Source: a virus
Lineage: Duplodnaviria > Caudoviricetes
DNA: 27,049 nt
Virus record (IMG/VR): IMGVR_UViG_3300047274_000323
Location: 1-27,049 of that record
Reading direction: 5' to 3' (one strand)
The position numbers were made by a program, and so were the translations under genes. The notes under the pieces were generated by a model, which did not search any database, was not told the origin of the DNA, and was given only the letters and a program-made list of their open reading frames with translations. Every line of letters begins with the position of its first letter. The first letter of the stretch is position 1. This document shows, in pieces, positions 9,301 to 26,529 of the stretch.

Positions 9301-12300
9301 TCCGACCAAGTTACAATCTATGGTGCAAACCCCGTGGTATACAACGGCACCTTTATTGTAACCTCCCGTATTGACGACTACACATTCTCATATCAGCTGA
9401 ATGTACCTACTGATATTATTCCACAGGGTAATATTCTTTTGTCAGTTGACCTCAATAGAGGCAAATCTGATGTATTGTCTATTAATAAAGTAATCAGTGA
9501 GTTTACTAGCAATGTCCAGAACACATTTTTCAATGCTGATTATGTTTATGTTGCAGCATCTGGTCTCCCAAACTATAAGATTGGACCTTTCACTGGATCT
9601 GCTCTTATTCCTGGCAACCAGCGCAAATTACTCAGATTTCCAAGAAAAGTCCAAACTATCTCAGAAAGAAGGGACATTATTCCTGGCACTTCAATTGGTG
9701 CATGGGTAAATGGTGTTTCAATTTGGTCTTACAAGTCTCGTGAATTTGTAAGATTTGGTCCAGTAACATCTATTGATGTTATTAATGGTGGTATCAAATA
9801 TGATGCTGGAAACAAACCGTCTCTAGAAATCACAGGTGGCAATGGTAGTGGCGCATCTGCAGAAGTAGTTATTAATGGTCAACTGGTATCATTTGATGTT
9901 ACTAATGAGGGTAGTGGGTATATTGAGCAACCACTGGTCTCTATTGTTGGAGGAGGTGGCAGTGGTGCTACAGCACAAGCAATTATCACTGGTGGCAGAG
10001 TAACTAGAATCTTAGTTGAGCAACCTGGCAGTGGGTATACCTCACAACCTAGTGTTTCAATCACTGGTGGTGGTGGCACTGGTGCTACAGCAGTTGCTAA
10101 TGTTAGGGGACCTGTAGAATCAGTAGTAATCACAAATGCAGGTAATGGATATACTGAAATTCCATCAATTAAGTTGAATTCTGGTGAAGGAGCACTTGCA
10201 CAACCAATTGTAATCAATGGTCGTATCGTTTCTATTGCTATTATCAACTCTGGTGCTGGTTATACAACGGCACCAACTGTTGTAATTAATGGAGATGGTT
10301 TTGGTGCAATTGCAAAGGCAAATATTGGCACTGTTGGTGAAGATAAGGGTAGAGTGCTGAGTGTTGAAATTACTAATAGGGGTATTGGATACACTCAAGG
10401 TAATACTACAATTAGATTAGATTCTATTGGAGAAAACGCAGTATTCCAAGCAAATGTATTTGAGTGGAATAAAAACTTACAGGCAGATTTGTCTACTAAA
10501 TTTGATTATGCTAGAGGATATGTCTTCACTGGATATAACAACCAGTTTGGTGGTGAGTATGCCCACCTCTCCGACCCCAAAGAGTTGAGATATGTGGTTG
10601 GTGATAATGTTTTCCTCAATCCTGTCACTCAAAAATTTCAAGAATTAACATCCAACTATAAGCACTCTCCAATTTTGGGTTGGGCGTTTGATGGTAATCC
10701 AATTTACGGTCCATATGGTTATGATGACCCAACTGATCAGAATAGTGGTGTTAGAAGACTGCGTACATCTTTTAAATTAAAGACAAATATCGTATTTGAT
10801 GAAAATACCAACCCCAATCCAAGTCGTATTGATGGTCCTTCACTGACAGAGTATTCTGCAGGATCATTTATTGATGACTACTTCTATGATTTCCAGTCTG
10901 GTGATTTGGACAACTATAATGGTCGTTTCTGTAAGACTCCAGATTTCCCAAATGGCATTTATGCGTACTTTATCACAATTGATGCTTCTGATGCTGGTGT
11001 TGCAGAATTTCCATATATTGTTGGTCCACAATATAACTCACTACCAGATGGTTGGAATTTTACTCAAGGAGCAACCCAAGAAAATATCCCTGCAGATGTC
11101 GTAAGATTCAGGGATCCATATGTTGACGTTGATATTGACATCGATCGTCAACCGAACCAATCATCTAATATTTTGACTACTGAGATTGAAGGATATCCCA
11201 TCATCTTTGAGATTCAGGATTCCAATAATGATGGACTTATCGATGCTAACGAGCAACAGGAGTTTCTTGAATTATCTGAAGAGACGACCCTGCAAATCTT
11301 TGATTACTTCCCACAAGTCTCCGCTGAGTCTAGAGTTGATATTGAAGTTGAGAGCACAACGCAATTTGAAGATGCTAAGATTGATGGATTTGTTATTGAA
11401 AATCCAGGCGTATCCTATCAGGTTGGGGATACCGTATTCTTTGATAATGAGGGCACTGGTGGATTTGGCGCCTCAGCCCTTATTGAGTCTGTTAAGGGAC
11501 AAAAAATTCTTGGTTATACTAAAGAGATTATTGCAGATAAACCATATGGTGTAATTACCACAGAAATCGAGCATGAACTTCGTCAAAATGATGAAATCAT
11601 CGTCAATTCAAGTCCCATCCTCGATAATACCAACAAAACTTTTAAAGTAAAAGTTGTAGCAGGTATTGAGCGTATCAATATCATCCAGAGTGGTGTTGGT
11701 TATAATCAAGATATTCCACCAACTTTCGAACTAATTACATCAGCAGGTCAGGATGGTCAACTTGAGCTTGTTCTTGAAAATACTGGTCAAATTAATAAAG
11801 TAAATATTATCAATTCGGGTAATGGATATGACCCAGAGAATCCTCCAGAAATTCGCGTATCGCACCCTCAGCAATTCAAGAAAACTCGTTATTGGTTAAC
11901 TGAATACTATGAAGCAACTGGTATTGTAAGAGTCAATCATTCAATTACAACCTCAGATAGATATACCTATATTTGTGGCAGTATCACTGAGATCGATGGT
12001 GATATGTCTGGGTTTATTGCTAAGTTTGATGACCTTGGTGCACGAGTATGGCAGAGAAACCTGCTGCCACAAAATGCTGGTCAAAAGAGACTTGAATTCA
12101 TCAAAATGGTGATTGATGAAGAATTTGAAAATGATGTCATCTATGTGGTTGGTCAATCTTACAATCCAACTACCTCGCAATACAGCCCAGATGTATTCCT
12201 GGCACAGTATGAGTCTGGATTTAACAATGCAAACGCTCCAGATGGTATTCTGAAGTGGCAGAGATCTATTGCAGGCATTTCTGGTAGCACCAGAAGAGAT

Positions 12301-15300
12301 TATGTGACTTCTATTGCATTAGACCAGGAGAAGAAGATTTATATTGGTGGTTATACTGATACCAACTCACCAGACCCAGATGATATGTGGGTAATCCAGT
12401 GTGATTTGGATGGTGACATCAAAGAGAAGCGTAAAATTGCATCTGAAAATGCTTCCGAGAGACTTTACCAAATTCAGTTGATTTCTGATGATAATTTCTT
12501 CTTTGTTGGTGTAAACGAAGAAACAGATGACCTCATTTTTGGTCAATTCTTCTTCGATGGTGCAAATATTGAAATTGCGTGGATTCGTCAGATTGCTGTT
12601 ATTGGTGGGCAGGTTAAAAATCCCAAATTTGCAATTGATGATTATGGTGCATGTATTCTTGTTTGGGATGTATATAACGCAACTACAAGTAAGTTTGAAA
12701 AAATCCAAATTAATAAATTCCAAATTGCAACTGCCAATACACAGTGGGAATGGGCAAAGAGCATTACTTTGAATACAACTTTTGTATCAATTAATCATGC
12801 AAACATTAGTGTTGATGTATTTGGTAACTATACTATTGTTGCAGATATTGTCGAGTCGCAAAATCAAAGATATTCAATCATCAACTACTTGAAGTATGAT
12901 GGGACCATTATTAAAGAAACCAAAGTTGAAGACGTAAGCAATATTGGTTTTAGCGCAAAGAACCATACTGTGGATAACTCTGGCGACTGCATTATTGCAG
13001 CAAACCGTCAGCAATCTGATCAACTTGCATCCTTCAGATTTAATACTGTAGGCAATCTTGAATATGATTTCACAAAACAGAATTTAGCAACTTGGACATA
13101 TGTTGACCAAGCAAATGTGTCTTTGGATACAACAATTTATAAGTATGGCACTGGTTCTCTGAAGTATGCTGCAGGGGCAAAACCAGCAACTCTGACAGGA
13201 TTTGGTATTACACCAATCGAGTGGTCCACCAGAGCATGGTTCTCAATGAATACTACTGCCTGGTCAACTGCACATCAACCAACATTCTTTGAGGTTGTGC
13301 CAGAAACAGGAAATAGAATTCGTTTTGATATTGATGGCAATTCTGGCAGTGCCAACTACCAAAAAGTATTGATTTATGTAAATGGCACTCTGGCAGCATC
13401 GTCAACAACGACAACTTCTTGGTCTGCATTTGCATCTGGCGCATGGGTGCATGTTACCTTCCAAAAGCGTCAAGAGTCTCTGGGTCTTTACAAGTATGAA
13501 GTCTTTATTAATGGTAATTTACAACTAAGTTACCAGTCAACAGATGACATCCATCTTGATGATGTTGTAATTGGTGGTCCATCAGTATCTCCAACTACAA
13601 CAAATTGCTTTATCGGTAATATTGACGATTTAGTAATTGACGATATTGCGCCATATGAAAATGCATATACATCTCCAACATCAGAAATTAATATTACAAC
13701 TCAAGATTCCGATGTTGTATTAATAAAATTTGACCGTCTGCATACAAATAGAGATAGTTATACTCTCCAAGACTTAGCACGTTATAATGAATTTGCTTTC
13801 AGTGATGTTGAAAGTGCAACTACTTGGGTGGATATCAATATCCCAGCATTCTCTGCTTGGGAAGAGGGTCCTGGTGGTTTGCAAATCCTTGATATGTCGC
13901 AGGTTATCTCCACATTTAACCCAACAACATATACATTATCTACTACTAAGTATCAATATGCTTCTAAGACCTCTACGGTGCCATCACCAAGAGGTAAGAG
14001 ACTAATCATTGATTGTGATGTAATTAATAAATTTTATCTTAAGGATGCATCCTATCAAAAGATTGACAATGTATTCCAATTTACATTAAATCAAAATGCA
14101 TTCTTAACAAAATACAGTATTCTTCAGCAATTCAACTCTCAGGGCGTTACCACTGCATATGGCACCATTGTAGATATTCCAGATGGCACCCTCACAAATC
14201 CAGGATTAGGAAACACATACAAAATTGGTAAGATTTTTGGCACATTTAATACTACAGATCGTTTGAGAACATCTGAAGGTGATGTAAACCAAATTGAGGG
14301 TGAGTATTTTGATACGGAAGAAGTAGAGCAACCATGGGCGGCGGGAGCAACTTATGCTATCGGTGATAGAGTTTATTCAAATAGAAGAATCTACCAATCT
14401 CAGACTGCTGGCACATCTGGTAGTATTTCTCCACAACATACATCGGGCACTGCGTCCGATGGAAGTCTAGATTGGGCATTAGTTGATGATGCTGGTAAGT
14501 TCGATATTGACTTAACTGAAAAACCATACCCAAGACCCATTTATGCTGGTCTTGATATGCCAGAGTGGGATTCACACAAGTTATATGCCGTTGGTCAGAA
14601 AGTTTGGTGGAAACTGAATGTTTATCAGGTTGCAGTAGGAGGAGGTGGTGTCTCTAGCACTAATCCCCCAGTCCACACATCTGGCAGTCAATCTGATGGT
14701 GGCGTTACATGGCAATTTGTAGAAACTCTTGAAGCGATCTCTCCATATGCAAGATTTATGGAGTATGACCAGGGCAATAACTACAGTGTGCTTATTGAAG
14801 AAATTCACCCTGGGTCTAGCTATATTCCAGGTGACGTTGTAAGTCTGAGATCTAATAATATTGAGTTAGATCCTTCAAGAAAGCAGGTAAGAATCGTTGG
14901 ATTCCCATCTGTTAAGAAAATTCGCGTGACTGCACGCCTTGAAAAAGATATCATCCCAACCCAGTTTGATAGGACTGACCTTGTGTATTGCACATCAACA
15001 AGTCCCCACTTCTATAACATCTCCGATATCATCTACACTGAAGGTTTCCAAAGTACTCAATTTAATGGATCATTCTTTGTCCAAGATGTTATTGGTAGCA
15101 GAGAATTTACCTTTGCTATCCGCGATAACGCCGTTTCAGACCCAACATTCAATGCAGGAGCAATCGGTAATGTCAATATCTATGCTAAACACCCAACACT
15201 GAGATTTACTAAGAATCATCAATATAATTTTGATCTTAGTGACGCCTCAAACTTCGGTTACTATCTGTCATTCTCTCAGGATAACCAATATAAACTGGAG

Positions 15301-18300
15301 TATTCATTTAACAACATCGTCAGAGAGGGCACTCCTGGAATTCAGGCGGCTGGGGCTGCACCATTCGTGAAATTCCTTGTGATTGGGGATATTACAAATA
15401 TCTCATACTATTTCGATCCTTCACGCACGGGCAGTGACTCACCTGTTGGCGAAAATTCGTTCATTGACGTTTATGCAACTCCATATCAGGGAAGATTTAA
15501 GGTTGCAACAGTTGTTAATGACTTTACATTTAAATTCCCACTCGTAAGAGAGCCAGAAAAGAATTCTGCAGAAGTTGGTCTTGACGACCAGGATAATGAA
15601 TACTCCTACTATTCAACAACATCCACCAGAGCAGTTGGTCCAATCAACAGTATTAAACTGGTTTCTCCAGGTGGATTCTATAAGAAACTTCCTATTATTA
15701 AAGAGATTGCGTCATTCCGTCAGATTGAGAAAATAGTCATCAATGACGGCGGCACGGAATATGCTCCAGGTGTATATTATGATGTACAAATTGCTGGTGA
15801 TGGTGAAGGTGCAAGATGTATTGTAACTGTAGACTTTGATGATGAAGTTGGATCTGGAACAGTTACAAGAATTCAAGTAACAGACCCAGGTAAAGGTTAT
15901 ACATTTGCATCTCTTGATATTGATTCTATTCCTGGCATTCTTGGACCCACACTTGCTGGTTCTGGTGCCTCAGCAACTGTTGTTATTCCAGAAGAAGGTA
16001 GTGGTGCCTCAGTATTCCTTACAGGTAAAAATATCGGTAAGATTAAGAGACTTAAGAATAATGAGTTTGGTTTCGGTTATTCACATGACTACACTCTGAA
16101 GCCAGAAATTACATTCCCAGTCAACTTGCAACTCTTCAATACTTCGATTCTTTCGGAAATTAAGATTACAGACCCTGGTAGTGGTTACACTTCTGCCCCC
16201 TCAGTTGTGATTGAAGGTGGTGGTGGTAGTGGTGCTGAGGCAGTTGCTATTGTAAAAAATAATCGACTAAATGAGATTCAAATTAAGAATCCTGGATCGG
16301 GATATTCATCCGAGCCAGAGGTAACTCTGAAGTCTGAATTTAACTATGTCGTTAACCTTGACCTCAATTATCTGCAGTTTAATTTCCCACATGGCATTAC
16401 AACAGGTGCTGCCATCCAATTGCGTGCTGATACTATCGGTAGCACTGAGGGCGAGCTGCCTAAACCAAGCAGTGCTGGTCTGACAACTTTAGTTGAAGGT
16501 CAGATTTACTACGCAATTGCTGGAGAAATTAACTCCCTTGAGCCAGACCAAATCCGTTTTGCACTTACTCCACAGTCTGCTGCAGCAGGTGATTACATCA
16601 CATTCCTGACTCAGGGCAGTGGTCGTCAAGTGTTACTAACTGAAGTTTTTGGTGGTAAAGCGGTTGCAGTGGTGGAAACATCTAGATTCTTGGAAGGTGA
16701 AACTGTATTCCAAGGTAGCACCCTGGAGCAGGCATCTGCCATTGGCAAAGTATCCACAAACACAGGTTGGCAGATTGGTCCCAAAATTCTCAAGATTGTT
16801 GACTATGATGGTGACTGGAAGATTGGTGAAAAAGTCAACGGTGTCATCTCTAAAGCATCTGGTATCATTGATAACCTTAGTATTGCTCGTGGTGTGCTCA
16901 ACATTGGTTCACTCACTAAGACTCCTGGTAAGTTTATCGATGACGTTGGCAAACCATCTGAGATTGTCCAAAAGATTCAGGACTCCTTCTTCTACCAAAA
17001 CTTCTCTTATGTGATTAAGTCGGATATCCCCATCACTAAGTGGAAGAATCAGATTCTGCAAAACAACCACCCTGCAGGTTTTGTGATGTTTGGTCAGTTA
17101 CAACTGACTGGCGGTAAAGATATTTCTGGTCGCAAAATTGCAACTGAGTTTACTAAAGAAGTAAACATCAATAACTATGCAAACATTAATCAGATTACAT
17201 CATTTGCTGCAGCACAACCAATCTACACAGATTACAATAACACCGAAGTCCTCTTCCGTAAGAAGCGCCTGACATCTTCGGAAGAAATCTTGACATCTAT
17301 TGTTAAAAAACTTGATGATGTTTCAAACCGTTTTAATGGTATTGAAAAGTCATTCCCAATTACTGTTGAGGGTGAACAAGTTATTGTTAGCGATGACCAG
17401 TTACTGATTACTTTAAACGGCATTATCCAAGCACCTGGAGAATCATATCAAGTGGTTGGTGGAAATATTGTATTCTCTGAACCACCAAAACCAGCATCTA
17501 GAGTCAACTATAGAACTTTAGGAATTACACCAATTCCAATTTATAGAATTGCTCTGTATTCTGGCACTGTAGGCATCTCCAATTATGGTATTTTCCCGAC
17601 TCTGGGGCAGCAAGTTCAGGGTCAAAATACCAATACTTTTGCTACAGTAATCGATTCTGGCACAAACCATATTGATGTCATTAACATCACTGGTGGCACA
17701 TTCCAATTGAATGAAGAAATTACTAGAGGCACACTTTTCTCCGCTCTGGTGCAGTCGGTAACTCTACTCAATACTGAGACTATCTTTAGATTTGGCGAAT
17801 CTATTACAAATTTAGATGGCGATACTGCCATTATCGAAGAGGTTAATATTGATACAGAGGGAGATGTAACCGATAGAGTCGTTGTAAGTAAGACTTCAGG
17901 CACTGCTGAGTTTGAAACTGGTATCTTTGATATTAAACTGAATGAATTTATCTACTCTGCATCCAGTAAGATTGCTGGTAAGGTAACTTTCATTTCACCT
18001 TATATTGACCCAGCAACTGATGATCCCGTTGATGAGTTAATTCTTAATCCAGGATCTACTTTCTACGGGTTGCTGTTTGAGCGTCTGGTTAGCATCACCA
18101 ACCCCAACATCATCCTTGATGATATTTCAAAGTCATCAATTACTCCAACAGAATTGTATGACCAAGAAAATAGAATCAATGCCAACTTCTTGAGTTTTGA
18201 AGACGTTAGAAGCACAGAGGTTGTCTATACCGACCTTTCTAATGGCACTCTTACGGATGGGGAGTTTGTTTCCAATAAGAAAGTAACTTATACGAATCCC

Positions 18301-21300
18301 ATAACAGCATACCATGGTAGTGCTGGTAATAGATTCTATGATGCTGCAAATATGATTCGCGGCAACAAGCAAGAAATCATTGACTTTGCCGAGGCACAAA
18401 TTGCTGTTGAGCATCCCGATTTCTATTTCCCTGGCGATATTATCACCAATTCAACCAGTAGATATTCAGATTCATACAGAATGATTCAACTGAATAAGAA
18501 TCTGATTGTTGGCATGGCATATGATGACATGATTACCCAGTATCCTCTGGTATCTATCCCCGATATCAATAAGTGCAAGAGGGATCTTGGATATTTTGTA
18601 GATGCTCTTTCAATTGATATCTTCCGTGGTGGTAATGTATATACTCGTAAGTTTACATCTTACTATTTTGATGATACTGGCGCTCTTGTATATGTGAATG
18701 CCCAGGCAGCGGAAACACGTTATGCATATGAAAGAGCACTGGAGTGGATGAAGCAGGCAATTACCAACCAACTGTCTGGCACAATCTCTGCGGTTAACTC
18801 TGCAGATTCTTGGTCTGGTTATCAAGACCTAACCATCACTGCAGACCCATCACCAAATGATCCATACGGCACAAATGGTGCAAATACTGACAATACTGAC
18901 CCAGAGTCATGCTCAGACGTTCAAGACGCCTTGACGACGCTCTGGGAGGTCGTAGACACTGCTCTTGATTCTGGCACCCTAGATGAATTACCAGACGAAG
19001 AAGTTGGCACATATTCGCCAAACGAGACCAAGTGCCGTCGAGACATTGGTTACTTTGTTGATGCTATTGCAAATGATGTTTCTAGAGGTGGCAACTATAA
19101 CATTGTAACCTTTACTAAATTCTACTTCAATAATGCTGGCGCACCTATCAGTAATGGTTTAGTTGGAGAAACTGCACAATCAGTAACTGCATTTGAGAAA
19201 GCAAGAGATCTTTCATACAGAGCAATCAATAATCTCATGTATTATAAGGACCTCGAACTACTGAATGACCCAGCATCTTATGGGGGCAATGCTCCAGGTC
19301 ATACATATGATGCAGATTACAGCACTGGTAGTAACCAACTCATCACCAACTGTGCCGATGTCCAATCTTATATTGCAACACTCACGGATATTGCCGTTGA
19401 TGCAATTACTGCAGGCAACCTGAATAATGTAAATGCCCTCGCAACCATCAGCGATGGCACTTTCCTGAATAGTGAGAATATTAGGACCACAAAAATTGCA
19501 TATAAGAATAAGTCAACTGGATTATTTGCGTTTGAGGACCAAATTCGCGGTGTTACCAGCGGTGCAATCTTCAAGGCAATTGGTGCTAACGCTGGACTTA
19601 AGTGGATTTATGCAGGTCCAATCACAGGCAACTTCCAGACTGGCGAATATATCACAAACTCAACTCTGACAAATCAAGGTGGTGTTACCCAAAGTGTTAT
19701 TGTTAAGAAAGCAGAATTACTCGGCACCAAGTCTCTAAACTTCCCTGCTTCTGGATATCTTGTTGCTGCAGAATCTTATGATTTTGCATTTGGTGCTACC
19801 GATGACTTTACAATTGAAGCATGGATCAGACCATCTGGAATTAGTGGCACTCAGCATCTCTTTGATTTTAGAAGAACTGCAACTGCTGGTCTTAGAGTTG
19901 TTATGGATGGTCAACAACTAAGAGTATACAACGGCACTTCTGCGTTGATTATCAGTGGAAATGTATTCGCTGCTGCTAATACTTGGTATCATGTTTCAGT
20001 TGTAAGGACTGATAATGTGCTTCAAGCATATGTAAATGGATCTCAAGCAGGTTCTAATTATGCAGACACTAATGATTATGGATATGCTCCTTGCTATATT
20101 AGCGCAGACTTCAATACTGCAAACCAGTTTACTGGTTACATGGATAACCTTTATATTAAGAAGGGAGTTTCCGACCATATCGGGGCATTTACTCCACCAA
20201 CACAAGTTGATTATACCGATGACAATATTGTATTGGGACTTGATGGTGAAGGACCATTTATCTTATCAACCACAGAAACATACGCTACACTTACCAGCAT
20301 TAATGTATACAATGCAACTACTAAGGTTGTAAATTACGATGACCTCAGTTTTGTTATCAAGGATGTTGACCTAGGTAGAAAAGAATATAGAGATTGTGCT
20401 GAGATTATTAGTCTGAATGCCGCTTGGATTGCTGAGGAAGCAGTTGGTCGCATGAAGGCACAATTCCCAGACTTCATTATGCCTGGCGATGACCCAGCAA
20501 ATAACAGCTATGGTGGCACTAACTATTGTTTGCGCGATACTAAAGATTATATCATTGCAGCACTGGTTAAGGACTTAAGAGATGGTGGTAACTACCATTC
20601 ACTCTATACTGCACGCACATATTTGTCAGCATCTGGTAAACTAAAGCATGTTGGTAATGAAATTCTGCAGACATTATACACTTGGGATGAAGTGAGCAAC
20701 ATCATGATTGATGTCATCACATCTACAAGCAATGATTTGTCTGGTGAATACACAGAGAAACTGCGCATTCCAAACAACTTTGATTCACCTGCATCTCAGG
20801 CAGTCCAAGATGAAATTCGTCAGTTAACCACTGACATGCTTGAGGTTATTGCACCATCTCCAAATAGATTTAGAGATTCTGGCATCTTAATCTGGAAAAA
20901 CCGCGACTACATTGCCGATGAAGTTGTTGGTTATATTCAAGACAAGTATATTAAGACTCTTGCTGGAAACCCTGTAGATTTTCTTGATATTCCAGGTGGG
21001 GAGAATGTTTGTAAGCGTGACATCAAAACATATATTATCCCAGCAATTATTGCTGACCTTGCAACTGGGGGCACATATCAAACCCAGAATGTAATCGACT
21101 TCTATCTTGATTCTCAGAAGAATATTCTTTTTGTTGAGAATGAATTAAATCCAATGTTGGATGCATTCAATAAGACTAAAGAATTGTGTCAATTTGCAGT
21201 TAATAATCTCCTATTAGATGCTGGCACAACTGCTGCTGACTATGGATATTCGGCATGGGCACAAGATGATTACTATGAGCCACAGTGGACTTCAAGAAAT

Positions 21301-24300
21301 GCATATAGAGACACAACAATTACAATTGATGATGAAGGTTACCCACAAGCAACTCGTAGCAGAAACGACAGATATATCGATGCAACCAATTTAATCAAGG
21401 CAAACAAGGAATTGATTGCCAAGGAAGCAGTTGCAACGATGAATGACTTGTCCAAGTTTGGAGACTTCCAAATTCCTGGTGGGTCTGTAAATTGTGAAGA
21501 TGATGTTAAGGACGTTTTGGATGCTCTTGTCCACGACCTCCTGTTTGATTGCAACGACAAGATGTATGAAGCAGCATCGATGTATATCGAGCCAGAAAAT
21601 AACTCTCTCAGATACATTGAGACTGAGTGGGAAGCATCTGTGACTACGTTTAAGATTGTTAGAGATATTACAACTCTGACAATGAGAAACGCTTTTGGTA
21701 GAGACTATATTCCTGGCACGACTATTTCAGGTGTCCCTGTAGAGTCCTATGAGCAAAATCCTAAAGAGAATATTTTCAATGATTGCGGTAACGCTATCGA
21801 TGGAAACATTCGCTATATTGCTGAGCAAGCAGTATATGACGGTCAAGCACAGTATCCTGGTCTTGTAATTCCCAATGGTGCAATTAATTGTGTCCATGAC
21901 GTTGCAGACATCCTCAAAGCACTGGTATTTAACTTGAAGTATGGTGGTGATAACTGGATGCAATATGCTACTGAATTCTATGTAAATTACTCTGGCAACC
22001 TGCAGCATATCACATCTCAGACTACAGAAACTGTCTGGATTCTGAATAGAGCCAGAGATCTGGCAATTAAGGCAATCAAGGATGCTCCAATCACAAATAA
22101 CTCTGGATTTGCAGGGTCACAAAGATTTTATGATGCAACTCCAAACCCAACAAACCAACTCAGAAATTCAAACACAACTACTGGTATTATCTTAACAACA
22201 TTCAATAATAACGTAACAAGATCATTTACACCTGGCACTATTAATATTCAGAATGCTGACAACACCAGCACTGGTATGGACAACAGCGACGACTTCACTG
22301 CTCGCTGTATTACTATCCTTCCTTCAGGGACTCCAACAGATTCCGTACTGTTTGAGGGCGGTGGCACTGGATATGGCACTTGGATTGGTTTCCGCGATAG
22401 TGGCACTTATCTTAGATTGCGTGCTGGCACTGGCGCCACTGCATATTCTGGTGGTGCTTCATACACCTCCGACACTGGATTGGCGATGCTGGATATCCCA
22501 GTTTCAACACTTGTTGCTGCTGGATATATGGATGGCAATCAACATGAATTGGTTTGGGAAGTGAGAATTGGTGGTAATGTTGCTACTGGTCCAGGTAGAG
22601 TTAGACTCTTTATTGATGGCAATCTTGTTGGCAGTGCGACTACACCAGGATCTTTGAATACTGGATTGTCGGCTGGTGGTGGTGCATGGTCTGGTGGGGA
22701 TAATGGCGGGTTTGCAGCAACCGCTGGAGCAGTACCCGCTGGAGAGCCAACAACTGCATGGCCATATACAATCACTGGTAACATGGACTACTACCGTGCT
22801 CGCTTGGTAGATTCTTCATACACTGGCACCGAAGCAAATGCAGTAATCACTGAAATTAACACCTTGATGTCCAAGGTAACAGATGGAATTCAAAATCCAA
22901 CTAACGTTGCAACTCGCAATTATACTCTACCAACAATTTGGCCAGTTAAGTATACTCCAGAGATTGCTAAGCGTAATTTATCAATTTCATATGACACAAT
23001 CTCTGGTGGGTCTGGAGCAAGTGGCACTTGGTATAACACATGTGGAGAAGTGGCAGCATCCATTGACACTCTCATGGATATTCTCATCTATACGATTGAG
23101 GAAGCAGCAAATAATAACGTCAACTATCTCGCTACCAATGTAACAAGGACATTTAAACCAACTGATAATACTGAGTATCAACTTGGCACTTGCTATGACG
23201 TTGTATCTGCTATCGATACTCTGTTTAGTCTGATGACTGAAACATTAGGTGCTGGACCAGAAAATACAAAACTTATAGCAAATATGATTCTCTTCAATGA
23301 GAATGCAATCGCAACTAGAGCATTTAATGAAACTCGCGCATATTATGGCACTACAAATCTTACAATCGACTTTGCACTTGATGTGTTAAAGGCATGTAGA
23401 TATGACATGATTACCAGTGGTAATGCTGGAGCATTCAAACTTCTTCAGGATTGGTTTGATGGCGAAGGTAACTTCATTGCATTCCAAGGAGTAACTAGAT
23501 CTCATCTGCTATTCTGCCTCACTAAAGTCAGAGAGTATATTAAGAGTGTGATGTATCTCCTGGACACCGACCCAGATTGGACTCTCTATACTACATACAA
23601 TCCAGTCGAAAGACTTGAGTGGTTCCAAGAAGCAGCAGAATTTATTGTCGATTCTTCACTAAACCCAATTGAATATGCTCTGGAAGCATCTAAGTTTCCA
23701 ACAGAATCAAAGGTTACATTTATCGCATCTACACATGCTGTAAATCTGGTAAATACCTACAATATGGGTATTGATTATAATACTGACCCCGCTCTTGTTA
23801 CACTTTTACCACTAACCGAAGTTGGTTACGAACGTGCCGAATATAGAGTCAGAATTAATCGTCCAAATACTTTCCGTAGAGGTGATATCCTTCAGTATAT
23901 TCCAGCATCACAAACCTCTTTAGATGGAATGGAAGTAAGTGATTATTTCTATGTAATCAATGCCGAAGCAACTTGGTTTGAGATTGGAGTCCATTACATT
24001 CATGATGGAAGATTTAAAGAATTTGCGGTAGATACTGCAAATGCTGGTTCACAGATTCTGCAGGTTGTTAGAAGGTCTGGAATTGTTATTAAAGATATCA
24101 TTTATCCAACTGACCCATCACAAACACCTGTACTTGGAGGATTTAACTCTGCAGATGTTATCTATGGAGTTACTTCAGAAGCACATGCAGAAATCGGCGT
24201 TGTCCAAGAAAATAAAGCAAAGATTTACAAGTCATTTACTAGATACGACCTCAATAATGTATCCGAAGTCCTTGGAGATTATGATAACTTTATAAACGGT

Positions 24301-26529
24301 GAACAAGTTGTTGTTCAAGGTGCAACCAGCAATACTGGTTATATCTTACAAACAGCAACAACAAATGATGAAGGTGAAACATTTGTAAATCTTATTACAC
24401 AAACTGGCACTATTTCAATTGGTGATGATATCGAAGGAGTTGACTCTGGCACAATTGCTACAGTCGTAGGTATTTCTGACAGACTTCTGCTGAATATCAA
24501 GTCTGGTGATTTTGATAGCAACCAATGGTTGTTTGAGACTAATACTTCAACTGAGGCGTATATTACCGAATACACTAATAAGAGTGGTACTTTGACTGCC
24601 AATGGTGGTGGTCGTATTACAATTGATGTTGAAACTATCCAAAATTCTTGGAGTGCTGGAGATGTGATTTACGGTAGTTTGACCGATTATATCCTTGAGG
24701 TTAAGGGAATCAGCGGCACTCAAATTCAACTTAACCAGTATATTCATGGCACAAATGTATATCAACTGGAATTGGGTACAACAATCATTGATACTGGTAT
24801 TGCTGATACATTCAAAGTTGGCGATGTAGTATACCTATTACAAGGCACCACAATCAAGAATCCTGGTTTTGAGGCAACTGTTACTCAATACATCAATGAC
24901 CCAGATCAGGGAATTCACAGATTGTTTATTGCAAATCTCATTCCTGTGGGGGTCGGTGCCAACATTTCCGAGGTTATTATCAATACAAATAATATTGGTA
25001 AGATTGATATTGGATCTAACTTCCCAACAATCTATGCAAATGTCCTTTCATATACTGATACGGAATACACGTCTTACGGTAAGGTAGTTGCTATTGAGCA
25101 AACTGGCATTACTGCTAAAATTTGGATTGAAGGATCTGTTGGCGAATTTGTCAACAATATGAGTGTCAAATCAGATTTTGGTTGGGGTGGAGCAGTTTCC
25201 AAAGCAACAATCCTTGAGGGGAGGGTTGATAGATACTTCCGTGGTTTTGATGGCGTCCAAACAACATTTGACCTTACAATCAACAATGGTGAAGCATACT
25301 TCCCAGATCCAGCAGGTCACCTGCTTGTGTTTGTGAATGCTGTGCTACAACCCCCAGGTCCTACAAATTCATATATTGCATTCTCTGACAAGATTCAGTT
25401 TACTGAAGCACCTGAAGTTGGGTCTGAATTCATTGGTTATTACGTTGGTAAACTGCGTCAACTTGATGATATCAGTTTTGAGTTTGATTCACTTCGCTCA
25501 TCATTCAACCTCAAGCGTGATGGTCTCTTTTATTCACTGACACTAACCGAAGGGGTATCTTCTAACACAATTTTACCAGAAAACAATATTATTGTTTCTC
25601 TGAATGGAATCATTCAGGAGCCAGGTGTTGCTTATGAGTTGGTTGGTTCTAGAATTATCTTCTCAGAAGTCCCACGCTCAGGTAGCACTTTTGTTGGATT
25701 CTCTTATATTGGTAGTGACGCTGATGTGATTGCGGCAACAGTTGTGCCACCTATAGAATCTGGTGACCAACTCTTTATTGAGGGTGAAGAATTTAATCGT
25801 GAAGTTGCTGTTATCGAATCCTCCAACTCTCTCGTAACCTTTGAATATACTGGATCAGTTAAAGGAAGAAACGCAGATGCTCTTGCTGAGATTACAACTG
25901 GTCAAGTGGCAGGAGCAATTCTTACAAACCCTGGTGATGGATATACATCACGTCCAAACGTAGACGTTATCTCATCTACTGGTTTTGATGCAAGAATCAA
26001 GGCGCTTATGGGGATTACTAGAATTGATGTGAGAAGTGCTGGCATTGGTTATAAAAAACCAATCATTGCAATTGATAATGAAGTTCCAGATAATTTTGTA
26101 AGCCCAGTAGGCACTCCAGTAAACGGCGGTATCGATATCTATAATCCAGAAGAAAATGATGGCGGCGGGGGAGTTATAGTCATTCCAGGGACTATCGCAA
26201 TTACTTCTGACCCAGTTAATGTAACAGTTAACCAAGGTCAGAATGCAGTGTTTACTGTAAGTGCAACTACATCCAATAATGCAACTTTAAATTATCAGTG
26301 GCAGAAGAAGGAATATGGCACTACAGTTTGGACCAACATTATCGGTGCAAACCAAAGAACATACACTACAGGATTAGCAACACAAAATGATGATGGTGAT
26401 GAATTTAGAGTTGCAATTACTGCCATTGGTGCTACACCAGTTTATTCACTGTCAGCAATCATTACAGTTCAGACAGGTGCTACTGTAATTGCAAACTTTA
26501 CTCCAACACAAATCTTTGACGACATCTAA
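6364..26529 (+). CDS. gp7: Giant multidomain baseplate wedge initiator gp7-like protein (6721 aa)
   Basis: Follows gp6. gp7-type blocks: N-terminal QLPEFIRE...F..FL.EYY.SQE, IKDFY.SKGT...YLFK.MFGE (K707) and IQDS.FYQNFSYVIKS...HPAG..MFG (H3569). One uninterrupted 20.2-kb frame. Confidence 0.88.
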   Translation: MQKNIAVSDRVEFQLPEFIREEDRQFVNFLFEYYKSQEKTGRPYDILNNLLNYLDLDNYDSNSLSNDTKLLTNIGVYDTKIEIESIDGFQPTDGSIMIDNEVIYYESVTRGPDAIITPGVSFSQFNKKKQLLENPFPLFNGVRNKFPLSFLGTPVAPPSPEHLIVIVYNEMKIPGVDYFLEGDEIRFTTPPRARTGADDSEFTQITYLIGYADQEIITTDSIPWQEWQGTKSYPLRLNTQNYTPTSEIGLIINKNGRLQIPYEDYTVYNQEVIFKFPIGSADDIHVRSVEYIAPAYGSGATAIVAVSPNGQVNKVIAKDGGSNYRLDFAPKITIQSKEGGKGATARSLVGGVKNINLIDGGQGYTTYNPPIPTILAPSNPNGTAAKLSLTVNDTTGQVETITIDNSGSGYDFIPAITFVNPGGAKISNPTIDSEGRVNTASIQVLDGGNNYTNPPQVYIDPAPLGGINAQAISRIDQDGQVYEISIVNRGRGYVTPPRARIIDPIGAQVLDVTVASGSVTNIEMLTGGRGYTDAPSVYIVDDRKDAYGAPIGGTGATAVATIFNGEITDINITNFGEGYSAEFPPKIFIAEPKSARASVAVGFGEVTGFDIFQNGEGYSPSAFLNCSRGVSGAVAYDQLHNEIYAGEKALRQSNHVAGTTVINLDSLFIKEVFDKFRRQYLPTIQIDYSAVNPVQIVKSIKDFYISKGTKLATQYLFKIMFGEEIDVYYPKDEIISPSAANWVVDTILRAELISGNPDDLIDSELIQYADDVDLNVKGASALIENVISIIQGTDTIYELAISEETLNGSFVIPYKTTLVEPLDIKSQIITVDSTIGWPERNGTILINDEEEVQYKEKSLNQFIECTRSKNGVVEDWDPGTRIFSDIFVYTNKGTDTECKLRVLGIAEAGTTILDNTGSYYLPGDKLKVANLGSTAEGEERLSSWLYNVKKLIKIDTIEPGGVNNQTATVYCENPHGLLVSDQVTIYGANPVVYNGTFIVTSRIDDYTFSYQLNVPTDIIPQGNILLSVDLNRGKSDVLSINKVISEFTSNVQNTFFNADYVYVAASGLPNYKIGPFTGSALIPGNQRKLLRFPRKVQTISERRDIIPGTSIGAWVNGVSIWSYKSREFVRFGPVTSIDVINGGIKYDAGNKPSLEITGGNGSGASAEVVINGQLVSFDVTNEGSGYIEQPLVSIVGGGGSGATAQAIITGGRVTRILVEQPGSGYTSQPSVSITGGGGTGATAVANVRGPVESVVITNAGNGYTEIPSIKLNSGEGALAQPIVINGRIVSIAIINSGAGYTTAPTVVINGDGFGAIAKANIGTVGEDKGRVLSVEITNRGIGYTQGNTTIRLDSIGENAVFQANVFEWNKNLQADLSTKFDYARGYVFTGYNNQFGGEYAHLSDPKELRYVVGDNVFLNPVTQKFQELTSNYKHSPILGWAFDGNPIYGPYGYDDPTDQNSGVRRLRTSFKLKTNIVFDENTNPNPSRIDGPSLTEYSAGSFIDDYFYDFQSGDLDNYNGRFCKTPDFPNGIYAYFITIDASDAGVAEFPYIVGPQYNSLPDGWNFTQGATQENIPADVVRFRDPYVDVDIDIDRQPNQSSNILTTEIEGYPIIFEIQDSNNDGLIDANEQQEFLELSEETTLQIFDYFPQVSAESRVDIEVESTTQFEDAKIDGFVIENPGVSYQVGDTVFFDNEGTGGFGASALIESVKGQKILGYTKEIIADKPYGVITTEIEHELRQNDEIIVNSSPILDNTNKTFKVKVVAGIERINIIQSGVGYNQDIPPTFELITSAGQDGQLELVLENTGQINKVNIINSGNGYDPENPPEIRVSHPQQFKKTRYWLTEYYEATGIVRVNHSITTSDRYTYICGSITEIDGDMSGFIAKFDDLGARVWQRNLLPQNAGQKRLEFIKMVIDEEFENDVIYVVGQSYNPTTSQYSPDVFLAQYESGFNNANAPDGILKWQRSIAGISGSTRRDYVTSIALDQEKKIYIGGYTDTNSPDPDDMWVIQCDLDGDIKEKRKIASENASERLYQIQLISDDNFFFVGVNEETDDLIFGQFFFDGANIEIAWIRQIAVIGGQVKNPKFAIDDYGACILVWDVYNATTSKFEKIQINKFQIATANTQWEWAKSITLNTTFVSINHANISVDVFGNYTIVADIVESQNQRYSIINYLKYDGTIIKETKVEDVSNIGFSAKNHTVDNSGDCIIAANRQQSDQLASFRFNTVGNLEYDFTKQNLATWTYVDQANVSLDTTIYKYGTGSLKYAAGAKPATLTGFGITPIEWSTRAWFSMNTTAWSTAHQPTFFEVVPETGNRIRFDIDGNSGSANYQKVLIYVNGTLAASSTTTTSWSAFASGAWVHVTFQKRQESLGLYKYEVFINGNLQLSYQSTDDIHLDDVVIGGPSVSPTTTNCFIGNIDDLVIDDIAPYENAYTSPTSEINITTQDSDVVLIKFDRLHTNRDSYTLQDLARYNEFAFSDVESATTWVDINIPAFSAWEEGPGGLQILDMSQVISTFNPTTYTLSTTKYQYASKTSTVPSPRGKRLIIDCDVINKFYLKDASYQKIDNVFQFTLNQNAFLTKYSILQQFNSQGVTTAYGTIVDIPDGTLTNPGLGNTYKIGKIFGTFNTTDRLRTSEGDVNQIEGEYFDTEEVEQPWAAGATYAIGDRVYSNRRIYQSQTAGTSGSISPQHTSGTASDGSLDWALVDDAGKFDIDLTEKPYPRPIYAGLDMPEWDSHKLYAVGQKVWWKLNVYQVAVGGGGVSSTNPPVHTSGSQSDGGVTWQFVETLEAISPYARFMEYDQGNNYSVLIEEIHPGSSYIPGDVVSLRSNNIELDPSRKQVRIVGFPSVKKIRVTARLEKDIIPTQFDRTDLVYCTSTSPHFYNISDIIYTEGFQSTQFNGSFFVQDVIGSREFTFAIRDNAVSDPTFNAGAIGNVNIYAKHPTLRFTKNHQYNFDLSDASNFGYYLSFSQDNQYKLEYSFNNIVREGTPGIQAAGAAPFVKFLVIGDITNISYYFDPSRTGSDSPVGENSFIDVYATPYQGRFKVATVVNDFTFKFPLVREPEKNSAEVGLDDQDNEYSYYSTTSTRAVGPINSIKLVSPGGFYKKLPIIKEIASFRQIEKIVINDGGTEYAPGVYYDVQIAGDGEGARCIVTVDFDDEVGSGTVTRIQVTDPGKGYTFASLDIDSIPGILGPTLAGSGASATVVIPEEGSGASVFLTGKNIGKIKRLKNNEFGFGYSHDYTLKPEITFPVNLQLFNTSILSEIKITDPGSGYTSAPSVVIEGGGGSGAEAVAIVKNNRLNEIQIKNPGSGYSSEPEVTLKSEFNYVVNLDLNYLQFNFPHGITTGAAIQLRADTIGSTEGELPKPSSAGLTTLVEGQIYYAIAGEINSLEPDQIRFALTPQSAAAGDYITFLTQGSGRQVLLTEVFGGKAVAVVETSRFLEGETVFQGSTLEQASAIGKVSTNTGWQIGPKILKIVDYDGDWKIGEKVNGVISKASGIIDNLSIARGVLNIGSLTKTPGKFIDDVGKPSEIVQKIQDSFFYQNFSYVIKSDIPITKWKNQILQNNHPAGFVMFGQLQLTGGKDISGRKIATEFTKEVNINNYANINQITSFAAAQPIYTDYNNTEVLFRKKRLTSSEEILTSIVKKLDDVSNRFNGIEKSFPITVEGEQVIVSDDQLLITLNGIIQAPGESYQVVGGNIVFSEPPKPASRVNYRTLGITPIPIYRIALYSGTVGISNYGIFPTLGQQVQGQNTNTFATVIDSGTNHIDVINITGGTFQLNEEITRGTLFSALVQSVTLLNTETIFRFGESITNLDGDTAIIEEVNIDTEGDVTDRVVVSKTSGTAEFETGIFDIKLNEFIYSASSKIAGKVTFISPYIDPATDDPVDELILNPGSTFYGLLFERLVSITNPNIILDDISKSSITPTELYDQENRINANFLSFEDVRSTEVVYTDLSNGTLTDGEFVSNKKVTYTNPITAYHGSAGNRFYDAANMIRGNKQEIIDFAEAQIAVEHPDFYFPGDIITNSTSRYSDSYRMIQLNKNLIVGMAYDDMITQYPLVSIPDINKCKRDLGYFVDALSIDIFRGGNVYTRKFTSYYFDDTGALVYVNAQAAETRYAYERALEWMKQAITNQLSGTISAVNSADSWSGYQDLTITADPSPNDPYGTNGANTDNTDPESCSDVQDALTTLWEVVDTALDSGTLDELPDEEVGTYSPNETKCRRDIGYFVDAIANDVSRGGNYNIVTFTKFYFNNAGAPISNGLVGETAQSVTAFEKARDLSYRAINNLMYYKDLELLNDPASYGGNAPGHTYDADYSTGSNQLITNCADVQSYIATLTDIAVDAITAGNLNNVNALATISDGTFLNSENIRTTKIAYKNKSTGLFAFEDQIRGVTSGAIFKAIGANAGLKWIYAGPITGNFQTGEYITNSTLTNQGGVTQSVIVKKAELLGTKSLNFPASGYLVAAESYDFAFGATDDFTIEAWIRPSGISGTQHLFDFRRTATAGLRVVMDGQQLRVYNGTSALIISGNVFAAANTWYHVSVVRTDNVLQAYVNGSQAGSNYADTNDYGYAPCYISADFNTANQFTGYMDNLYIKKGVSDHIGAFTPPTQVDYTDDNIVLGLDGEGPFILSTTETYATLTSINVYNATTKVVNYDDLSFVIKDVDLGRKEYRDCAEIISLNAAWIAEEAVGRMKAQFPDFIMPGDDPANNSYGGTNYCLRDTKDYIIAALVKDLRDGGNYHSLYTARTYLSASGKLKHVGNEILQTLYTWDEVSNIMIDVITSTSNDLSGEYTEKLRIPNNFDSPASQAVQDEIRQLTTDMLEVIAPSPNRFRDSGILIWKNRDYIADEVVGYIQDKYIKTLAGNPVDFLDIPGGENVCKRDIKTYIIPAIIADLATGGTYQTQNVIDFYLDSQKNILFVENELNPMLDAFNKTKELCQFAVNNLLLDAGTTAADYGYSAWAQDDYYEPQWTSRNAYRDTTITIDDEGYPQATRSRNDRYIDATNLIKANKELIAKEAVATMNDLSKFGDFQIPGGSVNCEDDVKDVLDALVHDLLFDCNDKMYEAASMYIEPENNSLRYIETEWEASVTTFKIVRDITTLTMRNAFGRDYIPGTTISGVPVESYEQNPKENIFNDCGNAIDGNIRYIAEQAVYDGQAQYPGLVIPNGAINCVHDVADILKALVFNLKYGGDNWMQYATEFYVNYSGNLQHITSQTTETVWILNRARDLAIKAIKDAPITNNSGFAGSQRFYDATPNPTNQLRNSNTTTGIILTTFNNNVTRSFTPGTINIQNADNTSTGMDNSDDFTARCITILPSGTPTDSVLFEGGGTGYGTWIGFRDSGTYLRLRAGTGATAYSGGASYTSDTGLAMLDIPVSTLVAAGYMDGNQHELVWEVRIGGNVATGPGRVRLFIDGNLVGSATTPGSLNTGLSAGGGAWSGGDNGGFAATAGAVPAGEPTTAWPYTITGNMDYYRARLVDSSYTGTEANAVITEINTLMSKVTDGIQNPTNVATRNYTLPTIWPVKYTPEIAKRNLSISYDTISGGSGASGTWYNTCGEVAASIDTLMDILIYTIEEAANNNVNYLATNVTRTFKPTDNTEYQLGTCYDVVSAIDTLFSLMTETLGAGPENTKLIANMILFNENAIATRAFNETRAYYGTTNLTIDFALDVLKACRYDMITSGNAGAFKLLQDWFDGEGNFIAFQGVTRSHLLFCLTKVREYIKSVMYLLDTDPDWTLYTTYNPVERLEWFQEAAEFIVDSSLNPIEYALEASKFPTESKVTFIASTHAVNLVNTYNMGIDYNTDPALVTLLPLTEVGYERAEYRVRINRPNTFRRGDILQYIPASQTSLDGMEVSDYFYVINAEATWFEIGVHYIHDGRFKEFAVDTANAGSQILQVVRRSGIVIKDIIYPTDPSQTPVLGGFNSADVIYGVTSEAHAEIGVVQENKAKIYKSFTRYDLNNVSEVLGDYDNFINGEQVVVQGATSNTGYILQTATTNDEGETFVNLITQTGTISIGDDIEGVDSGTIATVVGISDRLLLNIKSGDFDSNQWLFETNTSTEAYITEYTNKSGTLTANGGGRITIDVETIQNSWSAGDVIYGSLTDYILEVKGISGTQIQLNQYIHGTNVYQLELGTTIIDTGIADTFKVGDVVYLLQGTTIKNPGFEATVTQYINDPDQGIHRLFIANLIPVGVGANISEVIINTNNIGKIDIGSNFPTIYANVLSYTDTEYTSYGKVVAIEQTGITAKIWIEGSVGEFVNNMSVKSDFGWGGAVSKATILEGRVDRYFRGFDGVQTTFDLTINNGEAYFPDPAGHLLVFVNAVLQPPGPTNSYIAFSDKIQFTEAPEVGSEFIGYYVGKLRQLDDISFEFDSLRSSFNLKRDGLFYSLTLTEGVSSNTILPENNIIVSLNGIIQEPGVAYELVGSRIIFSEVPRSGSTFVGFSYIGSDADVIAATVVPPIESGDQLFIEGEEFNREVAVIESSNSLVTFEYTGSVKGRNADALAEITTGQVAGAILTNPGDGYTSRPNVDVISSTGFDARIKALMGITRIDVRSAGIGYKKPIIAIDNEVPDNFVSPVGTPVNGGIDIYNPEENDGGGGVIVIPGTIAITSDPVNVTVNQGQNAVFTVSATTSNNATLNYQWQKKEYGTTVWTNIIGANQRTYTTGLATQNDDGDEFRVAITAIGATPVYSLSAIITVQTGATVIANFTPTQIFDDI
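7249..8225 (+). repeat. About 8 tandem protein-level beta-repeats of roughly 40 aa in gp7
   Basis: Consensus G.V..I.I.(N/D)GG.GY...P.I.I.....G..A.A, diverged at the DNA level. Confidence 0.8.
9541..11028 (+). other. YHYH-like domain in gp7, interrupted by repeats
   Basis: Motifs SGLPNY, IGAWVNGV, HSPILGWAFDGNPIYGPYG, GDLDNYNGRF..TPDFPNG.YAYF.T and FPYIVG. Confidence 0.75.
9757..10458 (+). repeat. 6 tandem GSGY-type beta-repeats
   Basis: Examples: GQLVSFDVTNEGSGYIEQPLVSIVGGGGSGATAQA and GRVTRILVEQPGSGYTSQPSVSITGGGGTGATAVA. Confidence 0.85.
11887..13010 (+). other. Beta-propeller-like region in gp7
   Basis: Blade-like repeats YICG...FIAKFDDLG..VWQR, IYVVG...FLAQY...LKWQR and IYIGG...WVIQCDLDG. 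Confidence 0.65.
13021..13700 (+). other. LamG/concanavalin A-like domain 1 in gp7
   Basis: KYGTGSL...W..RAWF...WVHVTF...VFING...FIGNIDDLVI. Confidence 0.75.
14335..14712 (+). repeat. Two CBM5/12-like aromatic modules
   Basis: W....Y.(I/V)G..V......Y......G......P.HTSG..SDG...W at 14335-14475 and 14566-14712. Confidence 0.65.
18328..23685 (+). repeat. About 7 alpha-helical phycobiliprotein/globin-like repeats with a C-x-(R/x)-D motif
   Basis: Recurrent R..DA...I..N...I...A.......P....PG.....CxRD...(F/I)..A...D...GGN, with closing helices C.(D/E)V...I.TL. The repeats are seen directly; the fold assignment is inferred. Confidence 0.7.
19711..20250 (+). other. LamG/concanavalin A-like domain 2 in gp7
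   Basis: GTKSLNF...DFTIEAWIRP...WYHVSVVR...AYVNG...FTGYMDNLYIKKG. Confidence 0.85.
26191..26472 (+). other. C-terminal immunoglobulin (I-set-like) domain in gp7
   Basis: ITSDPVNVTVNQGQNAVFTVSA...LNYQWQK...DDGDEFRV...S.SA.ITV. Confidence 0.85.

Follow-up and report, generated by a model that had tools for sequence, protein, structure and literature searches.

Does a giant phage baseplate protein carry phycobiliprotein domains, and do these domains hold a bilin pigment? The question is raised by a 27,049-nucleotide stretch of a marine cyanomyovirus (IMG/VR record IMGVR_UViG_3300047274_000323, positions 1 to 27,049), here called the window. A single open reading frame (ORF) at 6364..26529 on the plus strand occupies the position of gp7 and encodes a baseplate/virion structural protein of 6721 amino acids (aa) (PHROG 701, virion structural protein, E 0). 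A sequence-only reading of the window had proposed that repeats in this protein resemble phycobiliproteins, bear bilin-attachment-type cysteines, and could make the virion chromophore bearing. We find six phycobiliprotein-like domains followed by a degenerate seventh. On balance, we judge it probable that the six, with their predicted phycobiliprotein fold, stack as arms outside the virion and bind bilins covalently at conserved cysteines. From the site residues, the virion itself likely carries bilin pigment.

All ten cysteine motifs listed in the sequence-only reading lie at the residues it gave within ORF 6364-26529, with the following codon positions:

CxRD-type cysteines: C4071, 18574; C4224, 19033; C4722, 20527; C4883, 21010; C5044, 21493; C5176, 21889
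Closing-helix cysteines: C4183, 18910; C4330, 19351; C5560, 23041; C5610, 23191

The Pfam family PF00502 matches aa 4651-5300 with 27.8 bits (E 2.9e-6), over its cut-off of 22.2, and aa 3901-4400 with 22.0 bits (E 1.7e-4), just below it. Searching the PDB with a 55-row profile of aa 3985-4360 gave 16 matches at E<=1, all 16 of them phycobiliproteins and mostly alpha chains (best E 0.02). Cysteine accounts for 16 of 1287 residues within the repeats versus 15 of 5434 outside (p 5e-5, with boundaries set post hoc). Given the PF00502 score, the all-phycobiliprotein PDB matches, and the cysteine enrichment, the resemblance is more than chance. A self-BLAST of the repeat region returned zero alignments, a single-sequence PDB search gave weak matches (E 0.29-0.8), and an ESM Atlas search recovered solely unnamed viral clusters, a low level of recognition; the repeats were delimited by anchoring on cysteines and by profiles. 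They are present and phycobiliprotein-like as claimed, but partly nested rather than simply tandem. Likewise, the Cys and Asp of the CxRD-type motif occur in all six, but the Arg is absent at C5044 and C5176 (43/43 aligned relatives).

AlphaFold2 was used to predict both repeat clusters: model 1 (aa 3985-4360) has a predicted local distance difference test (pLDDT) of 86.7 and a predicted template modeling score (pTM) of 0.89, and model 2 (aa 4665-5790) has a pLDDT of 84.2 and a pTM of 0.73. We compared the models by VIA-align Z-scores against 48,161 chains. Domain 2 (model 1 residues 43-218) superimposes on phycoerythrin chain 5aqd_M with Z 15.8 and a root mean square deviation (rmsd) of 2.5 Å over 146 residues, and the top eight rows of the model 1 comparison are all phycobilisome proteins, the best other globin reaching Z 10.7. 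In a second comparison, domain 2 matches 7ap5_BBB at Z 16.8, and nearly all of the best 50 rows can be recognized from their titles, lengths, and numbering as beta chains of phycoerythrin or phycocyanin. Domain 3 matches 5aqd_M at Z 16.4 (rmsd 3.4 Å), and domain 6 matches a globin at Z 10.8. The fold assignment rests on these Z-scores together with Foldseek probabilities near 1, and it covers domains 2, 3, and 6 individually. The proposed phycobiliprotein (globin) fold is therefore the one predicted, at Z 15.8-16.8 for domains 2 and 3; the models are globin-like rather than another helical bundle, and Cys82 is kept in domains that have no second Cys, which argues against an intradomain disulfide.

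Along the plus strand, the repeat region is organized as follows:

18322..18411, plus: N-terminal helix pair of domain 1, aa 3987-4016, with Asp3993 as the beta-Asp39 equivalent (helices 3-32 of model 1; Asp in 50/50 relatives)
18451..18972, plus: domain 2, aa 4030-4203, complete and apparently inserted in domain 1, with Asp4036, C4071-x-R-D, and closing C4183
19018..19413, plus: body of domain 1, aa 4219-4350, with C4224-x-R-D and closing C4330 (helices 235-366 of model 1; Cys 55/55 and 45/45)
19783..20157, plus: LamG/concanavalin-like domain between the two clusters, aa 4474-4598 (PF13385, E 1.2e-18)
20374..20853, plus: domain 3, aa 4671-4830, complete, with C4722-L-R-D (C, R, and D each 43/43)
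20863..21201, plus: opening part of domain 4, aa 4834-4946, with Asp4838 and C4883-x-R-D (model 2 helices, conservation)
21364..21684, plus: opening part of domain 5, aa 5001-5107, with Asp5006 and C5044-E-D-D, no Arg (model 2, conservation)
21769..22077, plus: opening part of domain 6, aa 5136-5238, with C5176-V-H-D, His for Arg; closes after the inserted LamG
22177..22833, plus: LamG/CBM40-like beta-sandwich inserted in domain 6, aa 5272-5490 (Z 11-12 to laminin G/CBM40; Foldseek E 3e-4)
22837..23247, plus: three returning closing helices, at aa 5492-5510 (no Cys), C5560, and C5610 (model 2 helices 828-846, 897-920, and 947-964)
23260..23694, plus: domain 7, aa 5633-5777, degenerate and globin-like, no CxRD site (Z 9.5 to the RsbR globin)

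With one profile each for the helix pair that opens a domain (A), the cysteine helix (E), and the helix that closes the domain (H), the order read in the window is A A E H E H, A E H, A E A E A E, LamG, H H H, and the degenerate seventh domain. Read bracket-wise, this order suggests that domain 2 lies within domain 1, whose helix pair would belong with the body following domain 2, and that domain 6 lies within 5 and 5 within 4, so that domain 5 would close with the C5560 helix and domain 4 with the C5610 helix. The nesting of domain 6 is seen in the model, where a single globin aligns over residues 472-841 (107 residues) across the LamG domain; the latter may form the tip of a nested arm. Relatives have up to nine consecutive A segments and then E-H units, and nesting therefore appears to be general; their copy number ranges from 5 to 23 per protein. 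In domain 3, the closing helix lacks Cys and the Asp39 position is variable (18/43 relatives). The match of domain 7 to RsbR spans model residues 968-1113, its Z of 9.5 being middling, and its C5678 is a Cys in only 2/33 relatives.

Are the residues of a chromophore site retained? Aligned with CpcB, domain 2 places Asp4036 at Asp39, C4071-x-R-D at Cys82-Arg84-Asp85, and C4183 at Cys153. As proposed, then, the CxRD cysteines map to Cys82/84 and the closing cysteines to beta-Cys153/155. Over the cysteine helix of domain 2, the hhalign probability is 48% for beta (CpcB) versus 85% for alpha. All six domains keep the Cys82/Asp85 site. The Cys153/Asp39 site is kept in four, namely domain 2 by direct alignment and domains 1, 4, and 5 via the nesting that we infer, and it is absent in domains 3, 6, and 7. 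Among relatives, the Cys82-type residue is conserved in 52/55 and 55/55 sequences and then in 43/43 for each of the four later domains. Closing cysteines are conserved in 55/55, 45/45, 33/33, and 33/33, the last two being positions 5560 and 5610, as compared with 11/34 at 5491. The Arg of CxRD is present in domains 1-4 and is replaced by Asp in domain 5 and by His in domain 6 (42/43 each). Where the closing Cys is fixed, Asp39 is found in 50/50, 50/50, 42/43, and 33/43 relatives (plus nine Glu in the last); where it is absent or variable, the counts are 18/43 and 25/43. Across 121 long proteins, CxxD occurs in 841/842 E matches (708 CxRD), Cys in 624/657 H matches, and Asp in 642/696 A matches; the training set of these profiles consisted of helices with a cysteine, and degenerate copies like domain 7 escape them.

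Asp39 and Cys153 covary in 493 distinct paired domains (counts of 440, 18, 21, and 14), a pattern that stems from two or three domain positions and has exceptions in which Ser or Asn replaces Asp and Cys is kept. Cys82 is retained in 32/32 distinct domains without a closing Cys, and an intradomain disulfide role fits poorly for this reason. A Cys directly after the Asp39 position, as in C4678 (20395-20397) and C5141 (21784-21786), was found in 17/32 distinct domains without a closing Cys versus 4/461 with one; it may be an attachment site that has moved or a small residue buried in the fold.

To relate the repeats to phage bilin genes, we used a panel of 26 hand-picked T4-like genomes, comprising 23 cyanophage isolates, HTVC008M, and two complete metagenomic relatives. 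Two profiles detected the domains in the identical 15 of 26 genomes. CpeT was found in 10 genomes by Pfam and in two more by a profile of these 10 sequences together with one host CpcT; a match in S-SKS1 (E 0.0018, two stops) was discarded as noise. The domains occur in 12/12 CpeT-bearing genomes, and CpeT occurs in 0/11 domain-free genomes (Fisher p 5e-5 for the 26 genomes and 4e-4 for the 23 isolates), which upholds the suspected link between the repeats and the phage lyase gene. In S-PM2, Syn1, S-CAM1, S-RIM32, and others, cpeT lies 1-5 kilobases (kb) from the repeat-bearing gene. T-type lyases attach bilin at beta-Cys155 (PMC2327270). The repeats are likely the substrate of phage lyases. 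Since the covalent-site residues are kept, Asp39 and Cys153 turn over jointly, and a site-specific lyase follows the two-site form, covalent bilin binding seems to us a better-than-even proposition. A bilin reductase is present in 7/26 genomes, 5 domain-bearing and 2 domain-free, and does not track the domains. The cpeT gene, a pcyA-like gene, and a repeat-bearing fibre gene stand in a row within 3 kb in Sf-FP1 (PV340854.1, 19469-24241), and cpeT adjoins a bilin reductase in P-SSM7 (NC_015290.1, 13407-14535).

How widely are the domains distributed? The two repeat regions match 355 and 362 of 50,697 isolate phage records, named for Synechococcus, Cyanophage, or Prochlorococcus with the exception of one Marine virus. 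By comparison, gp6 matches 475 isolate records, 458 with cyanophage names and 12 from other hosts; at the sensitivity of these searches, the domains are thus missing from about 100 cyanophage records and from every T4-like isolate of a non-cyanobacterial host. The domains are found in gp7 and in several fibre proteins, and the full profile search yielded 1113 clusters at 50% identity. A GTDB scan for cellular homologues returned six loci (L205-L210). Five of these have gp7 flanks at 72-81% identity and were rejected as phage DNA within assemblies; the sixth lies on a 194-kb contig of a Synechococcus bin. The assemblies that hold these cyanophage gp7 regions are labelled Flavobacteriales, Euryarchaeota, Legionellales, and Nonlabens, likely through binning or culture contamination. 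In S-PM2 (NC_006820.1, 19719-31058), 16 tRNA genes are listed within a 3779-aa repeat-bearing ORF, probably an annotation coordinate error.

The top profile matches also include ten high-copy proteins with 16-32 CxRD-like motifs, mostly spaced by 115-180 residues. An alignment of 119 such one-cysteine repeat units matches domain 2 with a probability of 99% (E 5e-18); it was cut at the CxRD-like motif, so its Cys is 100% by construction. The consensus of this subfamily, exemplified by proteins P0194, P0195, P0197, and P0203, lacks both Asp39 and the closing Cys. From the loci found with one such protein plus the motif pattern (L240-L398), we took the 24 longest contigs (G003-G026) together, irrespective of one-site or two-site type. 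Repeat ORFs are present on 24/24, and the estimated full size is mostly near 350 kb. Neither psbA nor a CpeT-like gene was detected on any of the 24, 23 of which are only 27-72% complete. Adjacent heme oxygenase and bilin reductase genes are found on 3/24, including the sole contig more than 90% complete, far from the repeats. The reductase is PcyA-like below the cut-off and is closest to that of Pelagibacter phage Mosig (50%, versus 23-29% to cyanophage PcyA); no repeats were detected in Mosig. On two of the three contigs, the heme oxygenase/PcyX-PcyA-like pair stands behind hsp20 and clpS, and on a 330-kb phage contig, curli-secretion-like genes (CsgG match) directly follow such a pair (L442:2102-3342).

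The hosts of these jumbo phages are probably not cyanobacteria. Because the one-cysteine subfamily points to phages of about 350 kb in which neither psbA nor cpeT was found, the domain is probably not confined to cyanophages. The sequence-only reading had held that equal prevalence in phages of non-phototrophic hosts would weaken a light-related role. This objection applies in part: among isolates, all carriers are cyanophages, but related repeats are common on uncultured jumbo-phage contigs without psbA. Given these contigs and their Pelagibacter-phage-like bilin reductase, a role tied to cyanobacterial hosts is weakened, while the link to bilins is strengthened.

We propose the following model. 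Each domain would be inserted in a loop of the previous one, and the chain would run out and back as an arm with LamG at its tip; judging from annotations of relatives, the repeat region would be exposed in the mature virion. During infection, bilin would be attached to the Cys82-type site autocatalytically or through a host S-type lyase, and to the Cys153-type site through phage CpeT, the pigment being phycoerythrobilin (PEB) or phycocyanobilin (PCB) made by host or phage. As to purpose, light-gated adsorption is our leading candidate, although we hold it tentatively: the arm could change with light in such a way that adsorption is favored by day, while the host is able to sustain infection. 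Alternatively, the same chemistry might provide a folding or stabilizing cofactor or a light shield. We know of no earlier case of a virion that bears pigment. Dark adsorption is absent in P-HM1 and P-HM2 and present, though weaker than in light, in P-SSM2; such effects have been put down to host receptors or tail fibres that change with light, and in S-PM2, the light effect is independent of host photosynthesis (PMC6628666). The domains and cpeT are both present in P-HM2, P-HM1, and S-PM2 and both absent from P-SSM2. Light-dependent adsorption becomes testable in these terms, since the earlier explanations, as far as that source presents them, had no known chromophore (PMC6628666). A broader and slightly bolder extension, on which we would not rely, is that many aquatic T4-like and jumbo phages have colored virions, whose bilin-loaded baseplate or fibre arms absorb light and gate adsorption, and that phage cpeT, pebS, pcyA/pcyX, and heme oxygenase largely serve to pigment the phage's own tail and not host photosynthesis.

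Several observations weigh against pigmented, light-responsive arms. Foldseek alone gave no phycobiliprotein match at E<=0.001 for either model, and the CxRD motif is without its Arg in domains 5 and 6. Five of the 26 panel genomes were picked because they bear the domains. Moreover, the gp6 tree shows only three changes of the joint lyase/domain label, and the co-occurrence therefore rests on few independent events. The five two-cysteine domains of B3 come with no detected lyase; S-SKS1 and Sf-CH5 have one domain each, with neither closing helix nor lyase detected; and two-site domains may likewise occur on jumbo contigs without a detected lyase, judging from one contig that equals a two-site protein's contig in size. 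In S-WAM1 and genome G001, which are near the window on the gp6 tree, cpeT is 40-60 kb from the repeat gene. Ten of the 15 domain-bearing genomes have no bilin reductase, and conversely, P-SSM2, S-SSM7, and Pelagibacter phage Mosig have a reductase but no domains. The idea that phages with S-type lyases carry the domains was not borne out for S-CREM2 (lyase gene at 67041-67262) and S-B68 (77006-77185), in which no domains were detected; either their domains are too diverged for the profiles used, or the lyase substrate is left unexplained. As for light gating, isolated antenna phycobiliproteins are not known to be photoswitches. The tested BBAGs, bilin-binding globins considered below, are photoinert (PMC10151467), and adsorption of P-SSM2 is light enhanced although this phage is domain free (PMC6628666). 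The dark-adsorption comparison involves a handful of phages, with P-HM2 versus P-SSM2 as the core contrast; this small number and the photoinert BBAGs are the reasons for our caution on light gating.

The rival that best survives is pigment-free structural reuse, in which a captured fold serves as an arm spacer and its Cys, Arg, and Asp are kept for folding, interdomain or interchain disulfides, or metal. We regard it as improbable, though it deserves serious attention: reused folds are common as spacers in virion fibres, nesting supplies a structural rationale for this fold, the number of copies varies widely (5 to 23 per protein and 16 to 32 motifs), and some carriers lack a lyase or reductase. 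However, a disulfide within the domain fails to account for domain 3 and for the one-cysteine subfamily, and the two cysteines, Cys82 and Cys153, are far apart on a phycobiliprotein domain. Structural reuse also leaves unexplained why Asp39 and Cys153 are retained or lost together and why the domains co-occur with the lyase.

Much less probable is that the domains serve in receptor binding or chemical sensing through another or a noncovalent ligand, for instance heme, biliverdin, or a molecule of the host surface. The fold is common to heme and non-heme globin sensors (Z 8-10.7), LamG domains lie among the repeats, and two S-PM2 giant proteins, matched to repeat-bearing ones by protein length only, mutated during host coevolution (PMC9910659). 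Against this, the invariant columns of our alignments hold no conserved proximal His, except one His in A3, and the invariant residues are those of covalent phycobilin sites. Action on the host antenna, with the domains as decoys, bilin sinks, or mimics that dock assembling baseplates on phycobilisomes or thylakoids, would suit both the cyanophage names (plus single-cell 'Marine virus' records) found among the 50,697 isolate records and an NblA study in which cyanophages reportedly interfere with phycobilisomes, but it is equally unlikely, as the repeat domain lacks the X/Y helices through which alpha and beta subunits associate, the carriers include phages of Prochlorococcus, which is not known to have phycobilisomes, and jumbo phages without psbA, and a few copies per virion make a poor sink.

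Covalent bilin binding by the repeats would provide a candidate substrate, encoded by the phage itself, for the bilin lyases and bilin-synthesis enzymes, which are commonly assumed to help the host harvest light. The lyases are treated in this way in PMC10665884 and PMC10452541, and the purpose of hemO-pcyA/X in phages of alphaproteobacteria is left open in PMC11480375. We found no account of phycobiliprotein domains in virion proteins in a literature search whose coverage excluded subscription journals, theses, and supplements. The large family would also be a source of new monomeric bilin-binding domains.

The window represents about 15% of the genome of a T4-like marine cyanomyovirus, by completeness estimate. 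Its gene order is a PAAR-like gene, gp25, gp6, and then the 6721-aa ORF:

3847..4260, plus: gp25 baseplate wedge subunit (PF04965, E 5.8e-15)
4262..6346, plus: gp6 baseplate wedge subunit (PF21379, PHROG 219)

On the gp6 tree, the nearest isolates are P-TIM40, S-SZBM1, and S-WAM1, the last with a matching gene order around its giant protein. The PAAR-like gene (PHROG 281; 2700-3233), just upstream of the baseplate genes, is unusually rich in Cys and Pro. PF23786 matches the giant protein with 22.5 bits, below its cut-off of 27. Further domains of this protein are YHYH at 10462-10986 (E 1.5e-28), another LamG at 13210-13638, a weak CBM5/12 match at 14335-14418, and a C-terminal Ig-like domain at 26200-26397.

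On the virion side, T4 gp7 and the giant fibre proteins of cyanomyoviruses (PHROG 701, 4527, 5342, and 18802) are likewise encoded after gp25/gp6; T4 gp7 is about one-sixth the length of the window protein. Relatives are annotated as baseplate wedge initiator, virion structural protein, or short tail fibre. None of these annotations names a phycobiliprotein domain, although PF00502 is precomputed on many database relatives.

Among bilin proteins, CpeB/CpcB (PF00502) are similar to the repeats in predicted globin fold (Z up to 16.8, rmsd 1.7-2.6 Å in the best rows), in Cys82-Arg84-Asp85, in the Asp39 plus Cys153 site, and in the loop before the last helix. In contrast to them, the repeats are nested in a 6721-aa virion protein, have no alpha partner, share only 12-20% identity, and have Arg84 replaced in two domains. 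They also lack the X/Y helices, the alignments beginning at beta-chain residue 26-33, although against some cryptophyte chains, a domain 1 helix partly overlays the X/Y position. At the PGGN loop with methyl-Asn72, the domain 2 alignment has a gap, and no PGGN occurs in the sequence of the other domains. CpcA (alpha) is closer in sequence in the helix around the Cys (85% versus 48% for beta), but it has no second cysteine site and fits the model more poorly (1b8d_A, Z 11.8, versus 1b8d_B, Z 15.0). With alpha nearer in sequence and beta nearer in the model, descent from a beta gene is not established.

ApcE resembles the window protein in having a phycobiliprotein domain fused into a large structural protein (Z 13.7-15.2), and it attaches its bilin autocatalytically (PMC2327270). 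It differs in having one domain per chain, a location in the phycobilisome, no second cysteine site, and no nesting. BBAG-1/3 are CxRD globins outside phycobilisomes, found with heme oxygenase and bilin reductase genes; these globins of non-phototrophs bind bilins without lyases (PMC10151467). They are bacterial globins in gene clusters, and the available text of that paper is silent on phages and virions. The pattern of the one-cysteine jumbo-phage subfamily is similar to that of BBAGs, in a comparison made by description only. The repeats belong to the phycobiliprotein fold family and are not an antenna subunit.

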